Source: an uncultured Candidatus Saccharibacteria bacterium
Lineage (GTDB): Bacteria > Patescibacteriota > Minisyncoccia > JACQLN01 > CAZPCT01
Length of the DNA: 39,605 bases
Reading direction: 5' to 3'
Assembly (NCBI GenBank): GCA_964600085.1
Contig: CAZRHU010000003.1
Span: 1 to 39,605 of the forward strand
Shown here: in pieces, positions 2,510-10,424 of the stretch
Layout of the letters: the number at the start of each line of letters is the position of its first letter
Position numbering within the stretch: position 1 is the first letter of the stretch
Translations under genes and position numbers: made by a program
The notes under the pieces: model-generated
Seen by the model: the letters and a program-made list of their open reading frames with translations, nothing else
Database searches by the model: none
What the model was told of the DNA's origin: nothing

Positions 2510-3433
2510 ATGAAGATTATTTTTTTTGGAACATCAGAGTTTGCGGTGCCGATATTAGAAGCGCTAAATAATAGTGATAATTTTGATATTGGCTTGGTTG
2601 TTGTTGAACCGTCAAAGCCGGCTGGTAGAAAAAAAGAATTACTTTTATCTCCTGTTCATAGTCTTTGTCGAGAAGAAGATCTAGACTTGTTTCCACCAAA
2701 AACTCTTAAAGATTCAGAAGTTCAGAAGATTATAAAAGACGTTAAAGCAGATATTTTTATTGTTGTTTCTTACGGCAAGATAATTCCCTCTCAAGTTTTT
2801 AATTTACCTAAACACAAGACGATTAACGTTCACCCTTCTTTATTACCAAAGTATCGTGGACCTTCTCCAATCCAGTCCACTCTATTAAGTGGAGATAGAG
2901 AAACGGGTGTTACATTAATTCAAATAGATGAAGAAGTTGATCGCGGACCCATAGTTTCTCAAGAAAAAATAAATATCAAAGATAACGACACATTCTTAGA
3001 TCTTGAAGATAAGCTATCACAGTTAGGAGCCGAGATGATTCTTCGTGATTTACCGAAGTATGTTTCCGGAGGTATGGGGCTAATTAAACAAAACCATAAA
3101 GAGGCAACCTTTACAGAAAAAATTAAAAAAGAAGACGGAGAGATAGATTGGAACAACTCGGCGCAAGATATATATAATAAATGGCGTGCTTTTATTAGGT
3201 GGCCCGGCGTTTACACTGTAATAAATAATACTCGCTTTAATCTAAAGAAGGTAAGAATTGCTAAGAATATTAGAGGGAAAGTTAAAGGTGAAATGTTTAG
3301 TGAAGACAAAAGATTGTTTAGGGGTTGTGCTGATGGAGTTATAGAGATAGAAGAAATACAACCCGAAGGAAAGAGCGCGATGGATGCAACCTCCTTTATA
3401 AATGGTTATAAGAACTTTTTATTAGGTTCTTGA
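2510..3433 (+). CDS. fmt: Methionyl-tRNA formyltransferase
   Basis: N-terminal MKIIFFGTSEFAVP and the HPSLLPKYRGPSPIQ formyltransferase motif. Protein is 307 aa and sits in def-fmt synteny. Confidence 0.9.
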   Translation: MKIIFFGTSEFAVPILEALNNSDNFDIGLVVVEPSKPAGRKKELLLSPVHSLCREEDLDLFPPKTLKDSEVQKIIKDVKADIFIVVSYGKIIPSQVFNLPKHKTINVHPSLLPKYRGPSPIQSTLLSGDRETGVTLIQIDEEVDRGPIVSQEKINIKDNDTFLDLEDKLSQLGAEMILRDLPKYVSGGMGLIKQNHKEATFTEKIKKEDGEIDWNNSAQDIYNKWRAFIRWPGVYTVINNTRFNLKKVRIAKNIRGKVKGEMFSEDKRLFRGCADGVIEIEEIQPEGKSAMDATSFINGYKNFLLGS

Positions 3434-3451
3434 TGAGATATAATAGGCCTA

Positions 3452-4618
3452 ATGAAGCTTTTGAATAAAAGTAAAATTTTATTTTTATTAGTTGCTATTA
3501 TTATCTTGATACTAGTAACTTTTTTTATTTTAGCTGGTGAAAGTTTTGATCTGGAAAATAGCGAAATTTATTCCTTTTTCGTTAATAGAAATGATATTTC
3601 TTTAGGAGAAAAACTAAAAAATCCCCCCTCCTCTTTGCGTGGTATATATATGACCAGCTGGACAGCGGGAACCCCTTCTCTCTTTAATAACTTATTAAAT
3701 CTTATTGAGGAAACAGAATTAAACGCAGTAGTTTTAGACGTTAAAGATTATAGTGGCTATCTCTCTTTTAGAACTAGTATTCCTTTAGCTGAAGAAATAA
3801 AAGCTCACGACGAATTAAGGATAGTTGATATTCAAAAAGTAATTAGAGATCTACACGATAGAAATATTTATGTTATAGGCCGTCTGCAGGTCTTTCAAGA
3901 TCCTCTTTTGGCTCTGGCGAGACCAGATTTAGCCGTTAGAGATTCTGTGACTAGGGAGCCCTGGAGAGATCATAAAAATCTATCTTGGTTAGATCCAGCC
4001 GGTCAAGAGGTTCGTCAGTATGCTTTAGAAATAGCAAGAGAAGCAGATAGATACGGCTTTGACGAGATAAATTTTGATTATGTTCGATTTCCATCTGATG
4101 GAAATTTAGAAAGAATGGTTTTTCCTTTTTGGGATAATGTTACGCCAAGATATGAAGTCGTTCGTTCTTTTTTTCAATTCTTAAGAGAAGAAACCTTGAA
4201 AGAAGATATAAAAATATCAGCTGATATTTTTGGTATGGCCTCCTGGAGAGCTATGGACTTAGATTATGATGCTTACATCGGCCAGAGAATGACTGACGCT
4301 CTCCCCTACTTTGACGCTGTAATGCCTATGATATATCCTTCTCACTTTGCTCCCGGAACCGTTGGTTTTGAAAATCCCGCTGACCACCCCTACGAGATCG
4401 TCTATGAATCTCTCAAGAGAACAAAACAGTTGATGGCTACTACCACAAATTGTGTTGCCAGTATAAGACCTTGGATTCAGGACTTTGATATAGGTGCTAA
4501 TTATGGCCCCGAAGAGGTTAGAGCGCAGATAAGAGCTACTTACGACAACGGCATTAAAGGGTGGGTGCTCTGGAACGCCAGTAATAAATATACCCGCGAA
4601 GCCCTACTAGAAAATTAA
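3452..4618 (+). CDS. Membrane-anchored putative glycoside hydrolase (DUF4015/GHL-type TIM barrel)
   Basis: N-terminal TM helix. Blocks LNAVVLDVKD, FDEINFDYVRFPSDG and PMIYPSHF...HPYEIV resemble the DUF4015 putative glycosyl hydrolase family, recalled from memory and not searched. Confidence 0.55.
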   Translation: MKLLNKSKILFLLVAIIILILVTFFILAGESFDLENSEIYSFFVNRNDISLGEKLKNPPSSLRGIYMTSWTAGTPSLFNNLLNLIEETELNAVVLDVKDYSGYLSFRTSIPLAEEIKAHDELRIVDIQKVIRDLHDRNIYVIGRLQVFQDPLLALARPDLAVRDSVTREPWRDHKNLSWLDPAGQEVRQYALEIAREADRYGFDEINFDYVRFPSDGNLERMVFPFWDNVTPRYEVVRSFFQFLREETLKEDIKISADIFGMASWRAMDLDYDAYIGQRMTDALPYFDAVMPMIYPSHFAPGTVGFENPADHPYEIVYESLKRTKQLMATTTNCVASIRPWIQDFDIGANYGPEEVRAQIRATYDNGIKGWVLWNASNKYTREALLEN

Positions 4619-4680
4619 CTCTTTAAAGTATTAAAAAAACGAGAATATGAAAACATTATCTGTATTATACATAACACTAG

Positions 4681-4715
4681 ATACTTAATACTTTATACTT
4701 TATACTTGATACTAT
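4681..4715 (+). repeat. Five tandem heptamers ATACTTN ending 3 nt before the dnaX start codon
   Basis: Read directly: atactta atacttt atacttt atacttg atactat, then tct ATG. Confidence 0.9.
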
Positions 4716-4718
4716 TCT

Positions 4719-6140
4719 ATGAATAACCTCGTTTTATACAGAAAATATAGACCACAAAAATTTAGTGATGTTGTTGGCCAAGAGCACGTGGTTAAAACAA
4801 TTCAAAATTCTCTAAAGAGAGATAAGATTTCGCATGCTTATCTCTTTACCGGTCCTCGAGGCACAGGTAAGACGACAATTGCTCGTCTTTTGGCCAAGAG
4901 TTTAAATTGTGAAGATAGAAACGAATTTTCTGAGCCCTGTAATAAATGTCAGAGGTGTGTTGAAGCTAGTAGAGGACAAGATATTGATTTAATAGAAATT
5001 GATGCTGCTTCTAATAGAGGAATTGACGAGATAAGAGATCTGAAAGAGGGTGTTCGTTTCGGAGCTTCTCGTGGAAAATATAAAGTATATCTAATAGATG
5101 AAATTCATATGATGACCAGAGATGCTTTTAATGCTTTCCTTAAAACCTTGGAAGAGCCCCCTCCTTTTGTTGTTTTTATACTGGCTACTACCGAACCTCA
5201 TAAGCTCTTACCAACCGTTATATCCAGAACTCAGCGGTTTGACTTCAGGCTTTTAAATTTAAAAGAGATAGAAGAGCGTCTCAAAAAAATTCTTTCTGCT
5301 GAAAAGGTAAAAGTTAAAGAAGAACAGGCGATTAAGCTTATAGCTCAAGAAGCCAACGGTTCTATTAGGGATGCTGAGAGTTTATTGGGGCAGGTCTTAG
5401 CTTTTAGTAAAGACGAGTTTGGGGTTGATGATATAGAGGAGATTCTAGGGTTGGTTAGTTACTCGAGGTTGAAAAAATTTGTCGATCTCTTAATAAAAAA
5501 AGATAGAGCAGGAAGTTTAATTTATATACAAGAAACCGCTGAAGCGGGACAAGACTTTAATCAATTTCTCTCTTCTCTTATAGGTTATCTCCGTTATCTT
5601 CTCTTAATTGGCTTAGATGAAGAGTTGGCGAAGAGATTTAAAAAAGAAATAAATGAAGAGGATTTTAAAATCTTAAAGAGTCAATCCGGGGAAGTTGATT
5701 CGTTAAAGATTGGAGAGTGGATGAGTGTTTTTACCGAGGCAAAAGAAGATTTAGAAAGCTATCCCCTCCCCCAGATAACTCTTGAAGTTGCTGTTGTAGA
5801 AGTTTTAAAAAACTCAATAAGAGACAGAGAAGAAACCCCTGAGAAGATAGAAAATTCAGAAGAAGACACCTCTGAAGTTAAAGATGCTTCTGTGAAGACC
5901 TTATTAGATAAGTGGGAAGATATAGCCGACGCTCTAAAACCACACAACCACTCTTTGTCAGCTTTCGTAAAAGCTGTTACTCCTCAAAAAATTGATGAGG
6001 ACGGCGTTTTAACTATTTCAACAAAGTTTTCTTTTCATAAAGAGCGTATTCAGGAAAGAAAAAATCGTTTAGCGTTAGAGGATGCTATTAAAAAGGCGCT
6101 CGGTAAAAAAGTGTCGGTTCGTTGCATCTTAAAGAAATAA
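4719..6140 (+). CDS. dnaX: DNA polymerase III subunit gamma/tau
   Basis: Clamp-loader N-terminus (YRKYRPQKFSDVVGQEHV), Walker A GPRGTGKTT, a Cys zinc module (CEDRNEFSEPCNKCQRC), and the SRTQRF sensor motif. Confidence 0.92.
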   Translation: MNNLVLYRKYRPQKFSDVVGQEHVVKTIQNSLKRDKISHAYLFTGPRGTGKTTIARLLAKSLNCEDRNEFSEPCNKCQRCVEASRGQDIDLIEIDAASNRGIDEIRDLKEGVRFGASRGKYKVYLIDEIHMMTRDAFNAFLKTLEEPPPFVVFILATTEPHKLLPTVISRTQRFDFRLLNLKEIEERLKKILSAEKVKVKEEQAIKLIAQEANGSIRDAESLLGQVLAFSKDEFGVDDIEEILGLVSYSRLKKFVDLLIKKDRAGSLIYIQETAEAGQDFNQFLSSLIGYLRYLLLIGLDEELAKRFKKEINEEDFKILKSQSGEVDSLKIGEWMSVFTEAKEDLESYPLPQITLEVAVVEVLKNSIRDREETPEKIENSEEDTSEVKDASVKTLLDKWEDIADALKPHNHSLSAFVKAVTPQKIDEDGVLTISTKFSFHKERIQERKNRLALEDAIKKALGKKVSVRCILKK

Positions 6141-6163
6141 AAAATGGCGAGCGTTAGCTCGTC
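6137..6163 (-). terminator. Small hairpin plus T-run downstream of tRNA-Gln
   Basis: 7-bp stem at 6146-6152/6157-6163 (one G-U pair) with a GTTA loop. On the minus strand it is followed by ATTTTTTAT. Confidence 0.45.
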
Positions 6164-6178
6164 AAACCGATCTATTTA

Positions 6179-6252
6179 TGGCTGCCGGGCCAGGGCTCGA
6201 ACCTGGATTCCATGGACCAAAACCATGTGTCCTACCATTAGACGACCCGGCA
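6179..6252 (-). tRNA. tRNA-Gln (anticodon UUG) with encoded CCA
   Basis: The reverse complement TGCCGGGTCGTCTAATGGTAGGACACATGGTTTTGGTCCATGGAATCCAGGTTCGAGCCCTGGCCCGGCAGCCA folds by hand into a full cloverleaf. It has a 7-bp acceptor stem with U1-A72, discriminator G, anticodon loop UUUUGGU and T-loop TTCGAGC. Confidence 0.93.
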
Positions 6253-6340
6253 ATGTTTAAAGTTTATTGAGGATAGTTAACTTATCCTTATAAGTCATAA
6301 CATCCTACCATTAGCCTGCCCGGCCAGGGACGACCCGGCA
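6253..6340 (-). mobile_element. 88-nt miniature (internally deleted) copy of the GIY-YIG element, abutting tRNA nucleotide 1
   Basis: It consists of the 3' 37 nt and the 5' 51 nt of the full unit joined together. By eye it is identical to 6636-6723. Confidence 0.8.
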
Positions 6341-6635
6341 ATGTTTAAAGTTTATTGAGGATAGTTAACTTATCCTTTGATCCTTTGTAGCTTTTTAAAT
6401 ACTTTTCTCTTTCTCGTGCTTTAACTTTTGAATCAAAAGTTTCAATATAGACTATTTCAAATGGTATGCGATGTTTTGTGGATTTAACCAATCCTTTATT
6501 ATGATATTCTAAACGTTTAATAACATTCTTAGACATACCTGTATAATATCTATTATCTTTTTTGCTTCTTAAAATATAAACAAAATAAGTCATAACATCC
6601 TACCATTAGCCTGCCCGGCCAGGGACGACCCGGCA
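6341..6635 (-). mobile_element. Full 295-nt GIY-YIG element unit (pseudo-tRNA head, ORF, TAAACAT tail)
   Basis: Its ends are the same as those of the two 88-nt units. The length difference is 207 nt, i.e. 69 codons. Confidence 0.75.
6345..6593 (-). CDS. Small GIY-YIG (URI-domain, COG2827-like) nuclease family protein
   Basis: The 82-aa protein starts MTYFVYILRSKKDNRYYTGMS, giving the GIY and YIG equivalents. It also has the RLEYHN block and a conserved Glu region EREKYLK. Confidence 0.85.
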   Translation of the reverse strand: MTYFVYILRSKKDNRYYTGMSKNVIKRLEYHNKGLVKSTKHRIPFEIVYIETFDSKVKAREREKYLKSYKGSKDKLTILNKL

Positions 6636-6723
6636 ATGTTTAAAGTTTATTGAGGATAGTTAACTTATCCTTATAAGTCATAACATCCTACCATTAGCCT
6701 GCCCGGCCAGGGACGACCCGGCA
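6636..6723 (-). mobile_element. Second 88-nt miniature copy of the GIY-YIG element
   Basis: Same sequence as 6253-6340 by eye. It is followed at 6724-6730 by ATGTTTA, which equals the first 7 nt of a unit. Confidence 0.8.
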
Positions 6724-6794
6724 ATGTTTATTTTTTACCATATTTTGTTTATTTTTCCAACAACCGAAGCGTAACCTCAAGAGTTGCGATTTAA

Positions 6795-6829
6795 CTGAAT
6801 AGAAAGGGCGCCCTTGTAGGGGCGCCCTT
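6795..6829 (-). terminator. Intrinsic terminator of the GC-rich lipoprotein-like gene
   Basis: 10-bp GC-rich stem AAGGGCGCCC (6804-6813) / GGGCGCCCTT (6820-6829). On the minus strand it is followed by TTCTATTCA. Confidence 0.65.
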
Positions 6830-6849
6830 GGGTTGAAGGTGCTGTGGTG

Positions 6850-7988: not shown

Positions 7989-10424
7989 TTATAATTTGAA
8001 TTGTTTTTTATCTTCCCTATTGTCTTCTATTTTTTTTCTTTCTTCTCTTTTTCTAACTAGCTCTTCTCTAACCAACTCTCTTTCTTTACCATACTTTGTT
8101 CGTGATAATCCTCTAACTATATTAGCCGTCTCGGGATTTGGCTTGTGAGGCGAGTAGAGCTTTATATTAAATGGTTGAGCTGTCTGACCCTTAAATATCA
8201 TCTTCACATACGCGTGAAAGTTGTCTAAATTTATAAGGTCGTGAGCTCCAAAGAGAGGTTCTAAATACTGAGACAGAAATTCGGCATCTTCTTCACCAAT
8301 CCTCATTATAGCCATTGTTCCAATGTTGCCAAAAACGGCTTTGGATATTTCTTCTGGCAATTGTCCTATGAATTGGTGGGCTAAGATTAAATTTAAGCGA
8401 TACTTTCTAGCTTCTGATAAGATGGTAGCTGCTGATGAGGTGGTGAAGTTTTGAAACTCATCCATATATAGATAAAAATCTCTCCGTTCTTCTTGGGGAG
8501 TATCTCCCCTTGAAAAAGAAGCCATAGCTAGTTTTCCAGCCACTATTAGGCCTAGTAGGCTCATATTAGCTTCACCCAATTTTCCTTTTGATAGATTAAC
8601 TAAAAGTATTTTACCTTCATCCATAACTCTTCTAAAATTGATAGAACTTTTTGATTGACCTACTATAGGTCTCATAAAGTCATTAGATATAAAAGCATTA
8701 AACTTAGAGGTTATATAAGGAACCATATTAGCTAAAGAGGCCTCACCGCCGGCTTTTTCGGCTTCTTTTTCCCAAAAGTCCTTGACGACGGGGTTTTCGG
8801 TTTGCGACAACAAAGATCTTCTAAAGTTTTTATCAGCTAAAACCCTCGGAACGTCCATTAGGGTATAGCCTCTTTCCGGATAATCCATTAACAATAAAAG
8901 GGCGTTACGGGTGTACTGTTCAAACAGTGGCCCCCCGGTGGCTTTTAGATCATATAACTTATTAAATATATTTATAAGTTCATCAATTATAAAAGTTTTT
9001 TGTTCTGGATGCTGGGGGTTGTACTCTAACATATTAAGACCAAATGGTTTTTCTAAATCTGTGGGATCAAAAAGAACTACATCTTCCCACCTCTCTTTAG
9101 GAATAAGACCTAAAATTGACTCTGTTAGATCGCCGTGAGGATCTATAACACACAGACCTGCTCCTCTATCCACGTCTTGGTGAATAAGGCGCTGTAACAG
9201 GCCGGTCTTTCCCGTTCCGGTCTGTCCTATCACATACAGGTGACGCCTTCTATCTGTTTTAGCTAGACGAACCTCTGTTTCTCTTCCTCTATATTTGTTG
9301 ACTCCTAAAGAAATTCCTTCGCTCATTCCCCACGGGGCGGGAGCAGATCTGGCTTTAAGCCACCTCACCCCAGGAAGCGACGAGCCCGACAGAGGAAGGT
9401 GAAAAACACTGGCCAACTCTTCAGTGGATAAAACCGCTTTCTCTTTTTTATCAAACAATCGAAAGCTATATTCATAAATTATCTTTTCCTTCTTCTCTTC
9501 ATCTTCGGCAAAATAGTTTAAATTAGGTGATGAAAATTGGACAAAAGCACTTTCTATTTCATTTAAAATTGCTTTTGACCTTGCCTCACTGGGACTAGAA
9601 ACAGCTAATCTAATATTGACTTCAAAATTATTTTTAGATACTTTTGATTTAATAGCCTCTAAAATTTCTTCGTCTTGATAAGGCGTTTCGCCTTCTTTTT
9701 TTTCTTCTACCCTGTTTCCTAACTTTATTTTTGATGTCTTTTCTAAGGCCTCTTCAAAAGTTTTTCCCCTCTTTATTTCCTTAATCACTTTTTTAGCTTT
9801 AGATCCCCACCCCTTTTTTACGGGTCTCATAACAATCTGTAAACTAGCTCCCTCATCATTATTCAAGCTCGCCATAGCGGAAGCGATATTGTTTAGGGGA
9901 TCTACTCCTAAACTCTGATAGGTCTTTATGGGTAGTATTTCTGAACGAGAGGTGACGATATAAGAAGCGCTTGTTACTTGACCCGGCTCAAATATATCAT
10001 AATCTTCTACCGGCTCTACTACAGCTTCTGGAAAAATCGAATGAATTCCTTTTACTAGAGCGTCAGCGTATCTAGAAGGAGCAGAAGCGTAAAAAGCAAT
10101 CTTTCCTTTTATGTGGGTCATCTCCCATACAATATAGGGTGAGCCGTACTCCCACCTTTTCCAAAAACCACCGGGCTTTAGAGCTGAAAAAAGAGAATAG
10201 AGTTGCTCCATCGGCTCTATTCTCTCCCGAGCTTCTTTACTTTTTTCTTCCGGAGTTGTTTCTCTTGGTATTAAAATTAAAAAGAGCTCCATATCTAAAG
10301 AGCGCACAACTTCGCCCCTCTTTTTAATAGAACGAGAGAAGAGCCAGAAAATAATAAAGAGGACTATAAAAAGACCGGCTAGAAGACCAATGCTTATTAA
10401 AAAATTAGTGATTAGATTATCCAT
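7989..10424 (-). CDS. TraD/VirD4/TrwB-like (FtsK-HerA superfamily) P-loop ATPase with an N-terminal TM helix and a ~380-aa unknown domain
   Basis: Walker A VIGQTGTGKTG followed by CVIDPHGDL. Walker B is FYLYMDEFQNF, and the ARKYRLNLILAHQ block is typical of coupling-protein ATPases. Confidence 0.65.
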   Translation of the reverse strand: MDNLITNFLISIGLLAGLFIVLFIIFWLFSRSIKKRGEVVRSLDMELFLILIPRETTPEEKSKEARERIEPMEQLYSLFSALKPGGFWKRWEYGSPYIVWEMTHIKGKIAFYASAPSRYADALVKGIHSIFPEAVVEPVEDYDIFEPGQVTSASYIVTSRSEILPIKTYQSLGVDPLNNIASAMASLNNDEGASLQIVMRPVKKGWGSKAKKVIKEIKRGKTFEEALEKTSKIKLGNRVEEKKEGETPYQDEEILEAIKSKVSKNNFEVNIRLAVSSPSEARSKAILNEIESAFVQFSSPNLNYFAEDEEKKEKIIYEYSFRLFDKKEKAVLSTEELASVFHLPLSGSSLPGVRWLKARSAPAPWGMSEGISLGVNKYRGRETEVRLAKTDRRRHLYVIGQTGTGKTGLLQRLIHQDVDRGAGLCVIDPHGDLTESILGLIPKERWEDVVLFDPTDLEKPFGLNMLEYNPQHPEQKTFIIDELINIFNKLYDLKATGGPLFEQYTRNALLLLMDYPERGYTLMDVPRVLADKNFRRSLLSQTENPVVKDFWEKEAEKAGGEASLANMVPYITSKFNAFISNDFMRPIVGQSKSSINFRRVMDEGKILLVNLSKGKLGEANMSLLGLIVAGKLAMASFSRGDTPQEERRDFYLYMDEFQNFTTSSAATILSEARKYRLNLILAHQFIGQLPEEISKAVFGNIGTMAIMRIGEEDAEFLSQYLEPLFGAHDLINLDNFHAYVKMIFKGQTAQPFNIKLYSPHKPNPETANIVRGLSRTKYGKERELVREELVRKREERKKIEDNREDKKQFKL

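Follow-up and report, generated by a model that had tools for sequence, protein, structure and literature searches.

The stretch analyzed here (the window) comprises 39,605 nucleotides (nt) of contig CAZRHU010000003.1 from an uncultured Candidatus Saccharibacteria bacterium, and our subject is a short tandem array of nuclease-encoding units that abuts its tRNA-Gln(UUG) gene. ARAGORN calls a single tRNA in the 39.6-kb window, this tRNA-Gln(UUG) at positions 6179 to 6252 of the minus strand, and the gene scores 57.9 bits against the full-length Rfam model RF00005. It is also the only Rfam match in the window, just as tRNAs were the only Rfam matches in 20 related loci. Reading the minus strand 5′ to 3′, we found a mini unit (6723 to 6636), a full unit (6635 to 6341), a second mini unit (6340 to 6253) and then the intact tRNA (6252 to 6179), with a spacer of 0 nt throughout. 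The original prediction had proposed these unit coordinates, the absence of spacers and the intactness of the tRNA, and unit extraction and ARAGORN confirmed all of them to the base. The features of the array are as follows.

6724 to 6730, minus strand: copy of the TAAACAT leader preceding the array, 7 nt, the same as the unit ends
6636 to 6723, minus strand: mini unit 1, 88 nt, made up of the head, what remains of the open reading frame (ORF; 3 sense codons from its start, 10 from its end and the stop), and the tail
6698 to 6712, minus strand: insert CCCTGGCCGGGCAGG in head 1, 15 nt, a GC-rich near-palindrome
6723 to 6713 and 6697 to 6686, minus strand: head 1 copies of tRNA nt 1-11 and nt 12-23, respectively
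6341 to 6635, minus strand: full unit, 295 nt, with head, GIY-YIG ORF and tail
6610 to 6624, minus strand: insert in the full-unit head, 15 nt
6635 to 6625 and 6609 to 6598, minus strand: full-unit head copies of tRNA nt 1-11 and nt 12-23, respectively
6345 to 6593, minus strand: ORF of the 82-amino-acid (aa) UPF0213/Slx1-type GIY-YIG nuclease (Pfam PF01541, E=2.3e-15)
6253 to 6340, minus strand: mini unit 2, 88 nt, identical to mini unit 1, with its insert at 6329 to 6315
6179 to 6252, minus strand: intact tRNA-Gln(UUG), CCA encoded, adjoining the last unit (ARAGORN, Rfam)
6148 to 6161, minus strand: terminator-like hairpin and T run, 3′ of the tRNA

The three units share their ends exactly. 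The 38-nt head and the 37-nt tail each occur three times with 0 mismatches, as had been claimed, and had 0 occurrences in 100 shuffles; a repeat search independently returned the 295/88 spacing of the units. The two 88-nt mini units are identical in sequence, and each consists of the first 51 nt of the full unit joined to its last 37 nt. The 207 nt removed comprise codons 4 to 72 and were lost in frame, leaving the peptide MTYKDKLTILNKL followed by the stop; the deletion junction has no obvious microhomology. From this composition we take the minis to be non-autonomous deletion derivatives of the full unit. TAAACAT closes every unit and also directly precedes the array at 6730 to 6724, both as originally noted, and the flank upstream of the array ends in ...GGTAAAAAATAAACAT. 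The ORF stop lies 4 nt ahead of the next head or tRNA. Since each cassette closes by restoring the leader and the tRNA 5′ end, the tRNA downstream stays intact.

The head had been described as a pseudo-tRNA. Its 38 nt are indeed tRNA derived, but it is not a plain partial copy: tRNA nt 1-11 (TGCCGGGTCGT) and tRNA nt 12-23 (CTAATGGTAGGA) are split by the 15-mer CCCTGGCCGGGCAGG, a near-palindrome of 80% G+C in a genome of 35% G+C. An in-frame TAG lies 6 nt upstream of the ATG, so the head is noncoding, and a reading of it as coding sequence was ruled out. The insert was found in three forms, the short CCCTGGCCGGGCAGG and two long forms of 31 and 34 nt. The long inserts retain the outer CCCTGGCC...GGGCAGG and enclose differing 5-bp GC hairpins. 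The exact 15-mer occurred once per locus in 12 occupied loci, always in the head, and in 0 of 120 unoccupied tRNA-Gln loci. Pairing between the acceptor 5′ strand and the insert is apparent in the window and is not kept at other loci. CCCTGGCCGGGCAG resembles CCCTGGCCCGGCAG of this tRNA, and derivation of the insert from the tRNA 3′ end was considered as well; it was rejected because tRNA 3′ ends differ among loci whereas the insert is constant. In one locus (L009:2745-2765), and in that one only, the right half of the insert, CCGGGCAGG, is also found directly after the ORF stop and before the tRNA.

The ATG of the full unit lies 4 nt after the D-arm remnant, and the AGGA of that remnant is placed like a Shine-Dalgarno sequence. 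In most related loci the AGGA of the retained D-arm stands 4 to 5 nt before the ATG. Judging from this spacing, it would act as the ribosome-binding site of the cassette. The cassette is probably cotranscribed with the tRNA, and the hairpin at 6161 to 6148 is likely the end of that transcription unit.

The 82-aa ORF product, which had been called a GIY-YIG protein, matched Pfam GIY-YIG (PF01541) over residues 3 to 72 with 57.1 bits against a cutoff of 22.6, bearing out the call. Residues Y6, Y17, (G19), R27, H31 and E63 are invariant or nearly so among 36 homologues. From the known GIY-YIG fold, we take Y6, Y17, R27, H31 and E63 to have catalytic roles, E63 being presumably the metal-binding Glu. 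None of the NCBIfam models matched the protein, and the match to the PHROG "homing endonuclease" family was weak (E=4e-4). The closest database proteins are 56 to 66% identical and 81 to 89 aa long. When a profile of 15 homologues was compared with the PDB, the only matches were the UPF0213 proteins BH0048 (1zg2, E=1e-10) and EF2693 (1ywl, E=3e-9). The AlphaFold model has a predicted local distance difference test score of 88.4 and a β-β-α-α-β-α core. In a Foldseek search of this model, BH0048 and the Slx1 nuclease domain ranked at the top (template modeling score, 0.70; root mean square deviation, ~2 Å), and the I-TevI catalytic domain (template modeling score, 0.56) and the UvrC N-terminal domain ranked lower. 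Together, the conserved residues and the predicted fold suggest a catalytic-domain-only, apparently active nuclease of the Slx1-like branch. Eukaryotic members of this branch cut branched DNA. The unit protein has no transposase domain, and the window unit has no terminal inverted repeats.

We looked for relatives of the protein by scanning one genome per species with a 15-sequence alignment, which gave 509 relatives; 80 loci (numbered with an L here) were kept and three were added by exact protein look-up, making 83 loci in all. The first three related contexts that we inspected all showed a head, the ORF and a tRNA-Gln gene. A same-strand tRNA gene lay within 150 nt of the ORF at 63 of the 83 loci. 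With a few dozen tRNA genes per megabase, the chance expectation for such proximity is about 1%. In a neighbor-joining tree, the ORFs clustered by tRNA type: a Patescibacteria clade sat on tRNA-Gln genes, with UUG and CUG genes intermixed; a Bacteroidota clade sat on tRNA-Pro genes with three anticodons; and an Omnitrophota pair sat on tRNA-Glu. Further cases were scattered over tRNAs for Cys, Ser, His, Asn, Ala and Lys. Other occupied tRNA genes had been proposed as something to look for, and one example is in another member of the Saccharibacteria (L008), where an ORF 63% identical to the window's nests beside it in the tree and sits on tRNA-Glu(CUC). The head there consists of the 5′ 11 nt of tRNA-Glu, the same 15-mer and the tRNA-Glu D-loop.

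Heads take their sequence from the tRNA of their own locus. Across the Gln/Glu clade there are 13 different tRNA 5′ 11-mers, and some 24 of 27 heads are exact copies of this stretch of their own tRNA once three 1-nt ARAGORN start offsets are corrected. On the 3′ side of the insert, usually some 10 to 28 nt match the local D-arm, and in L025 the match extends through the anticodon loop. The insert always lies between tRNA nt 11 and 12, in GTCGT|CTAATGG and GTAGC|CAAGCGG tRNAs as well as in tRNA-Glu.

The junction TAAACAT|TGCCGGGTCGT had been proposed as the target, re-created after every unit. This does not hold across the family: the leader common to head and tRNA is only 0 to 7 nt long in relatives, the window's TAAACAT being the longest, and the proposed target junction is therefore locus specific. 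The family-wide landmark, as far as sequence comparison can place it, is instead inside the tRNA, at nt 11|12, with its conserved GC-rich insert. By analogy with the phage nuclease SegB (PMC13096335), unequal or nuclease-stimulated recombination between the 30-nt direct repeats would explain the reiteration just as well as a re-created target.

Site-specific recombination offers another route to such an array, in which units would leave and re-enter the chromosome as circles by way of the 18-nt core (TAAACATTGCCGGGTCGT), present on the circle and at the tRNA 5′ end alike, through a recombinase encoded elsewhere or through the GIY-YIG protein. Every junction does have the same 18- to 19-nt direct repeat overlapping the tRNA end, like attL/attR of tRNA-integrating islands, and tandem integration would yield exactly such an array. 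However, neither an integrase nor a transposase was found among the ORFs scanned around the array, over some 17 kb of the window, in agreement with the original prediction, and the leader common to head and tRNA in relatives is no longer than 0 to 7 nt. The minis in particular could hardly integrate: an 88-bp double-stranded circle is far below the persistence length of DNA. We know of no recombinase activity for GIY-YIG domains, and we give integrated circles a very slim chance.

Partial tRNA copies with GC hairpins also accompany the ORF in other clades, where CCCCGCC-N4-GGCGGGG and TCCCGC-N4-GCGGGA recur; the hairpin is in the D-loop in L020, L068 and L124 and in the T-loop in L080. L020 and L068 keep an intact ORF, but their heads have diverged from the local tRNA. 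In the Bacteroidota loci L021, L022, L036, L037, L045, L079 and L084 (positions ~2380 to 2820), we found an intact tRNA-Pro gene, a terminator, the ORF and a second tRNA-Pro copy, in this order. This second copy starts in the last codons of the ORF, so that its nt 8-10 double as the TAG stop, and the hairpin CCCCGCC-N4-GGCGGGG takes the place of its D-arm. It is still called a tRNA by ARAGORN and Rfam, at 39 to 53 bits versus 57 to 70 bits for the intact gene. Solo heads, each consisting of tRNA nt 1-12, the TCCCGC-N4-GCGGGA hairpin and a few nucleotides of anticodon stem and lacking an ORF, lie just upstream of intact tRNA-Pro genes (L022:2350-2390, L021, L037 and L033). By their composition, we regard these solo heads as the Bacteroidota counterpart of the window's minis.

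The recurrence of hairpins invites the thought that the head is a split guide or decoy, whose transcript or single strand would pair with the tRNA gene around 11|12 while the GC hairpin docks the nuclease and so confers sequence specificity on it. A conserved hairpin or palindrome stands at one and the same tRNA coordinate, between arms that match the tRNA, in 13 sequence contexts. The nuclease lacks a DNA-binding domain, and the proteins closest to it in structure work on branched or hairpin DNA. GC hairpins are also found with the ORF in several phyla. We nevertheless consider such a guide very improbable. The drifted heads of L020 and L068 coexist with intact ORFs, the short 15-nt insert has no loop and so cannot form a hairpin with its outer arms, the head folds no better than its shuffles, and local duplication accounts more simply for the match between head and tRNA.

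Arrays are not confined to the window. L007, L056 and L013 have extra heads or units without an ORF on the 5′ side of the unit that bears the ORF. On a 720-nt contig from another assembly (L209), an ftsX-like gene end is followed by a degenerate head, a head with ORF, an ORF-less unit with an identical head and then the start of a further head or tRNA; on this arrangement, we read the contig as a second array with a mini. In L084 and L062 a further ORF start or head follows the tRNA, and in L011 a tRNA copy with the insert does so. Where copies differ, decay is further advanced in the distal ones, which is what stepwise addition at the tRNA end would produce.

These loci bear on the concern that, the element itself being real, the mini-full-mini number and order might be an assembly artifact in which mixed full and mini alleles were joined through the 19-nt junction. 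The unit ends are identical, the array was seen once, in a metagenome-type contig, and the related contigs L002 and L003 break at this very point. Against this, the tail-to-head junction differs from both single-copy junctions beyond 19 nt, so that it needs supporting reads of its own at k of at least 21; a single 150-nt read can span the 88-nt mini; and similar arrays are present in independent assemblies (L007, L056, L209 and L084). We therefore think an artifact quite unlikely.

Occupancy is patchy. We searched metagenomes for TGCCGGGTCGTC-N(0-15)-TAATGGTAGGA, the first 23 nt of the tRNA with 0 to 15 nt allowed at the insert position, and obtained 121 tRNA-Gln genes. Only 2 of the 121 had a same-strand GIY-YIG ORF upstream, and both of these carry their own kind of D-loop insert; no further copy of the window's own head was found among the 121. 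At a second position, between ftsX and tRNA-Gln(CUG), the syntenic interval was empty in 5 loci (gap of 9 to 69 nt) and held a cassette in 6. Since the FtsX proteins are only 31 to 51% identical, this is variation in occupancy over deep time, not allelic polymorphism.

A sister clade comprises ten loci without a tRNA (L031, L032 and L035, each at 2460 to 2760; L055, L057, L071, L081, L043, L063 and L069), and its ORFs are ~49 to 56% identical to that of the window. Most members are bounded by inverted repeats of up to 12 to 13 bp, with ...ACCCTGTGAAAT on the left and ATTTCACAGGGTGA on the right, the stop codon lying inside the right repeat. The repeats covary between loci, as in the ACCCCGT/ACGGGGT pair of L069. 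A ~295-bp element lies in unrelated flanks on L031 and L032, contigs from a single genome bin, and its two copies are ~99% identical; members of this protein family therefore move. From these boundaries, the sister clade looks like a tiny insertion sequence-like element without a recognized transposase.

It is also conceivable that the ORF is a vertically inherited accessory gene with a host function, in repair or related to tRNA, that is cotranscribed with tRNA-Gln. The head would then be an old local duplication that provides the 5′ untranslated region and the ribosome-binding site, and the array would have arisen by slippage or unequal crossing-over, with the nuclease uninvolved. Several observations suit this view: protein clades correlate with tRNA type and phylum, the AGGA of the D-arm is well placed before the ATG in most loci, and 30-nt direct repeats suffice for unequal exchange. 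In addition, a 2006 phylogenomic survey interpreted the bacterial Slx1-like group as an ancestral, mostly vertically inherited, repair-type nuclease (PMC1564403). However, among the 121 tRNA-Gln genes sharing this 5′ end only 2 have such an ORF, the syntenic ftsX-to-tRNA-Gln junction differs in occupancy from lineage to lineage, and the same insert and ORF type is found on tRNA-Glu. One protein clade mixes UUG with CUG isoacceptor genes. Heads match 13 local tRNAs although the proteins differ by 35 to 45%; a neutral relic would decay, as the heads of L020 and L068 have done. Finally, the sister clade is demonstrably multicopy. We consider vertical inheritance with a host function unlikely.

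We instead favor, at a probability of roughly 55%, a selfish tRNA-linked nuclease cassette that spreads by nuclease-initiated recombination. The original proposal of a selfish element that targets tRNA genes gains support from comparisons that it did not draw on, namely the tRNA linkage across the family, the local origin of the heads, the patchy occupancy and the recurrence of arrays, and also from the lack of an integrase or transposase among the ORFs scanned nearby; TAAACAT as the target is not supported. The array anatomy, the break of the heads at 11|12 and the intact catalytic residues are likewise established. The array would then be a head-to-tail series of ~295-bp selfish cassettes, with the flank on one side and the mature tRNA-Gln(UUG) 5′ end on the other. 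The nuclease would break the tRNA gene in or near the D-arm, and the break would be repaired from a cassette-bearing copy, with left-hand homology supplied by the head and right-hand homology by the tRNA body. Repair would copy in the segment from the insert through the ORF to a new tRNA 5′ end, homing in the manner of free-standing endonuclease genes and of mitochondrial mobile ORFs (mORFs). Each round would rebuild an intact tRNA 5′ end and leave the broken copy behind as the head. Tandem units would result from a further hit or from unequal exchange between sisters at the 30-nt repeats, stimulated by the nuclease, and an internal in-frame deletion would give rise to a mini that keeps both ends and is carried along. 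In the exact cut site at the tRNA we have considerably less confidence than in the selfish cassette as such.

A number of points weigh against this interpretation. No cleavage, excision or insertion event has been observed at this locus. The protein is a catalytic domain only, with no accessory or DNA-binding domain, and it belongs to the structure-specific Slx1 branch and not to the I-TevI/Seg homing branch; specificity for a tRNA gene would have to come from elsewhere. The intact tRNA copy should stay cleavable, and the model does not account for self-immunity. For repair of the RecA type, homology arms of 11 to 18 nt are short. Bacteroidota loci show the opposite order, the intact tRNA coming before the ORF and the hairpin-bearing copy after it. 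In L011 (2850 to 2945), a full-length tRNA-Gln copy with a 31-nt insert at 11|12 directly follows the intact tRNA-Gln; the 5′ part of this copy reads GGGGTCGT, as in the upstream head, where the intact tRNA has GGGGATCGT. A 5′ variant shared by the insert-bearing copies does not fit a simple view of the head as resident DNA. The heads are not a conserved fold either, a candidate that we rejected because the minimum-free-energy z scores of four heads were −0.3 to +0.6 versus shuffles; the whole mini unit was the sole construct to reach a z score of −1.85. A promoter scan found no sigma-70-type promoter upstream of the array, and the weak TTGGAA-17-TAAAAA seen by eye at 6760 to 6732 fails the criteria of that scan. 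Lastly, the databases contained no close relative of the organism that could provide an orthologous empty site: the nearest, with DnaX 57 to 58% identical, have no tRNA-Gln after dnaX and are not syntenic there. The contig with the nearest DnaX (L085:1-4416, 57%, compared with window positions 2510 to 6140) shares the Fmt ... DUF4015-DnaX order without a tRNA-Gln after dnaX; the window's tRNA-Gln and its array are therefore at a lineage-specific position.

A phage origin was considered and rejected: the best matches in phage records were 34 to 42% identical, and only 2 weak viral contigs were found, so that phage and viral matches are distant only.

A selfish cassette at a tRNA gene recalls several known systems. 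Genomic islands and prophages that integrate at tRNA genes run to kilobases, carry an integrase gene and as a rule enter at the tRNA 3′ end. They share with the window's cassette a tRNA landing site, a partial tRNA copy that restores the gene and direct repeats at both ends. The cassette differs in being 295 bp long, in having no integrase and in lying at the tRNA 5′ end.

SegB, a free-standing GIY-YIG endonuclease of T4-like phages, is likewise encoded by a gene embedded among tRNA genes. It recognizes a conserved tRNA motif in the TΨC loop, cuts in tRNA genes and homes (PMC2330249), and it is inherited preferentially along with flanking tRNA DNA (PMC2330249; PMC13096335). SegB also drives the recombination-dependent tandem amplification of a unit made up of a tRNA gene and a truncated segB, and C-terminally truncated SegB is nontoxic (PMC13096335). 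Unlike the window protein, SegB has a C-terminal region beyond its catalytic domain, and it is phage borne, whereas the window's clade is essentially absent from phage records. The window protein is structurally nearer to Slx1 than to I-TevI. The motif of SegB is in the TΨC loop whereas the landmark here is in the D-arm, at nt 11|12, and the SegB loci have no pseudo-tRNA head bearing a conserved insert.

The mORFs of fungal mitochondria (Allomyces atp6; Glomus atp6, atp9, cox2 and nad3) bring with them a replacement end for the host gene, so that the essential gene stays functional and the native end is left alongside as a displaced pseudo-copy (PMC3630166). Their sites are the 3′ ends of protein-coding genes, and most of them encode LAGLIDADG proteins of several hundred residues. 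The window's cassette, in contrast, lies in a bacterial chromosome at the 5′ end of a tRNA gene, encodes an 82-aa nuclease, bears a conserved GC-rich insert where the tRNA copy is broken and occurs in tandem arrays that include minis.

The UPF0213/COG2827 proteins BH0048 and EF2693 belong to the same family by sequence and fold and have the same minimal size. The survey that described the Slx1-like group also reported a fusion to TrmH, the enzyme that methylates G18 in the D-loop (PMC1564403), which may be an independent hint of a link between the family and the tRNA D-arm. Our search of the open-access full-text literature found no description of tRNA-linked UPF0213 cassettes, of pseudo-tRNA heads or of inverted-repeat-bounded GIY-YIG mini-elements. 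A free-standing endonuclease gene that carries a replacement gene end is a known kind of element, and the arrangement here would be an undescribed variant of it.

A broader suggestion takes in the sister clade, and we offer it tentatively, as less likely than not but with a real chance of being right: Slx1-like GIY-YIG nucleases of 80 to 90 aa would be the sole protein of an unrecognized class of autonomous bacterial mobile elements of ~300 bp. The tRNA branch may home at the D-arm position 11|12, its tRNA-derived arms on either side of a GC hairpin serving as homology or guide, and may rebuild the tRNA, ride its promoter and stack with minis. The sister branch may move as a mini-element bounded by inverted repeats.

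If the selfish cassette is real, it would be among the smallest autonomous selfish DNA elements known to us, consisting of an 82-residue enzyme and ~50 nt of ends. The widespread UPF0213/COG2827 proteins, two solved structures of which remain deposited as "hypothetical," would thereby gain a biological role. The cassette would also mean that bacterial tRNA genes are exploited from the 5′ side by endonuclease-type elements, besides integrase islands, and that Patescibacteria, with their small genomes, are among the hosts. For enzyme engineering, a nuclease that consists of a single domain and apparently reaches a fixed position in a tRNA gene is of interest whatever the source of its specificity.

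The loci also give rise to annotation errors. Gene callers mismodel the ORFs P0001, P0012, P0016, P0020, P0021, P0029, P0030 and P0035: the window's own call is a 63-aa truncation, and others run N terminally through the head (e.g., ...GDRPWPxKPVRGQ...) or C terminally into the tRNA or next head. Heads and tRNAs are read through as protein in P0016, P0021, P0029 and P0030, and tRNA finders call hairpin-bearing tRNA copies as genes. The N-terminal extensions of database homologues are such read-throughs.

The ORFs around the array encode DnaX, a small lipoprotein-like protein, GtrA and an ATPase resembling type IV secretion system coupling proteins. This last ORF (7989 to 10424, minus strand) lies 1.3 kb from the array and encodes an 811-aa protein with TrwB/VirD4-type coupling ATPase and HerA-like regions (Pfam E=4e-9 and 9e-8). 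The remaining ORFs scanned in the first 17 kb are housekeeping genes, for PriA, Fmt, a DUF4015 protein, DnaX, SerRS and a tRNA synthetase of class II, Asp/Lys/Asn type. At 6800 to 6835 on the minus strand, shortly before the array begins, the self-complementary GGGCGCCC occurs twice within CAAGGGCGCCCCTACAAGGGCGCCCTTTC and a T-rich run comes after it; this is probably the terminator of the 120-aa lipoprotein-like ORF (7212 to 6850).

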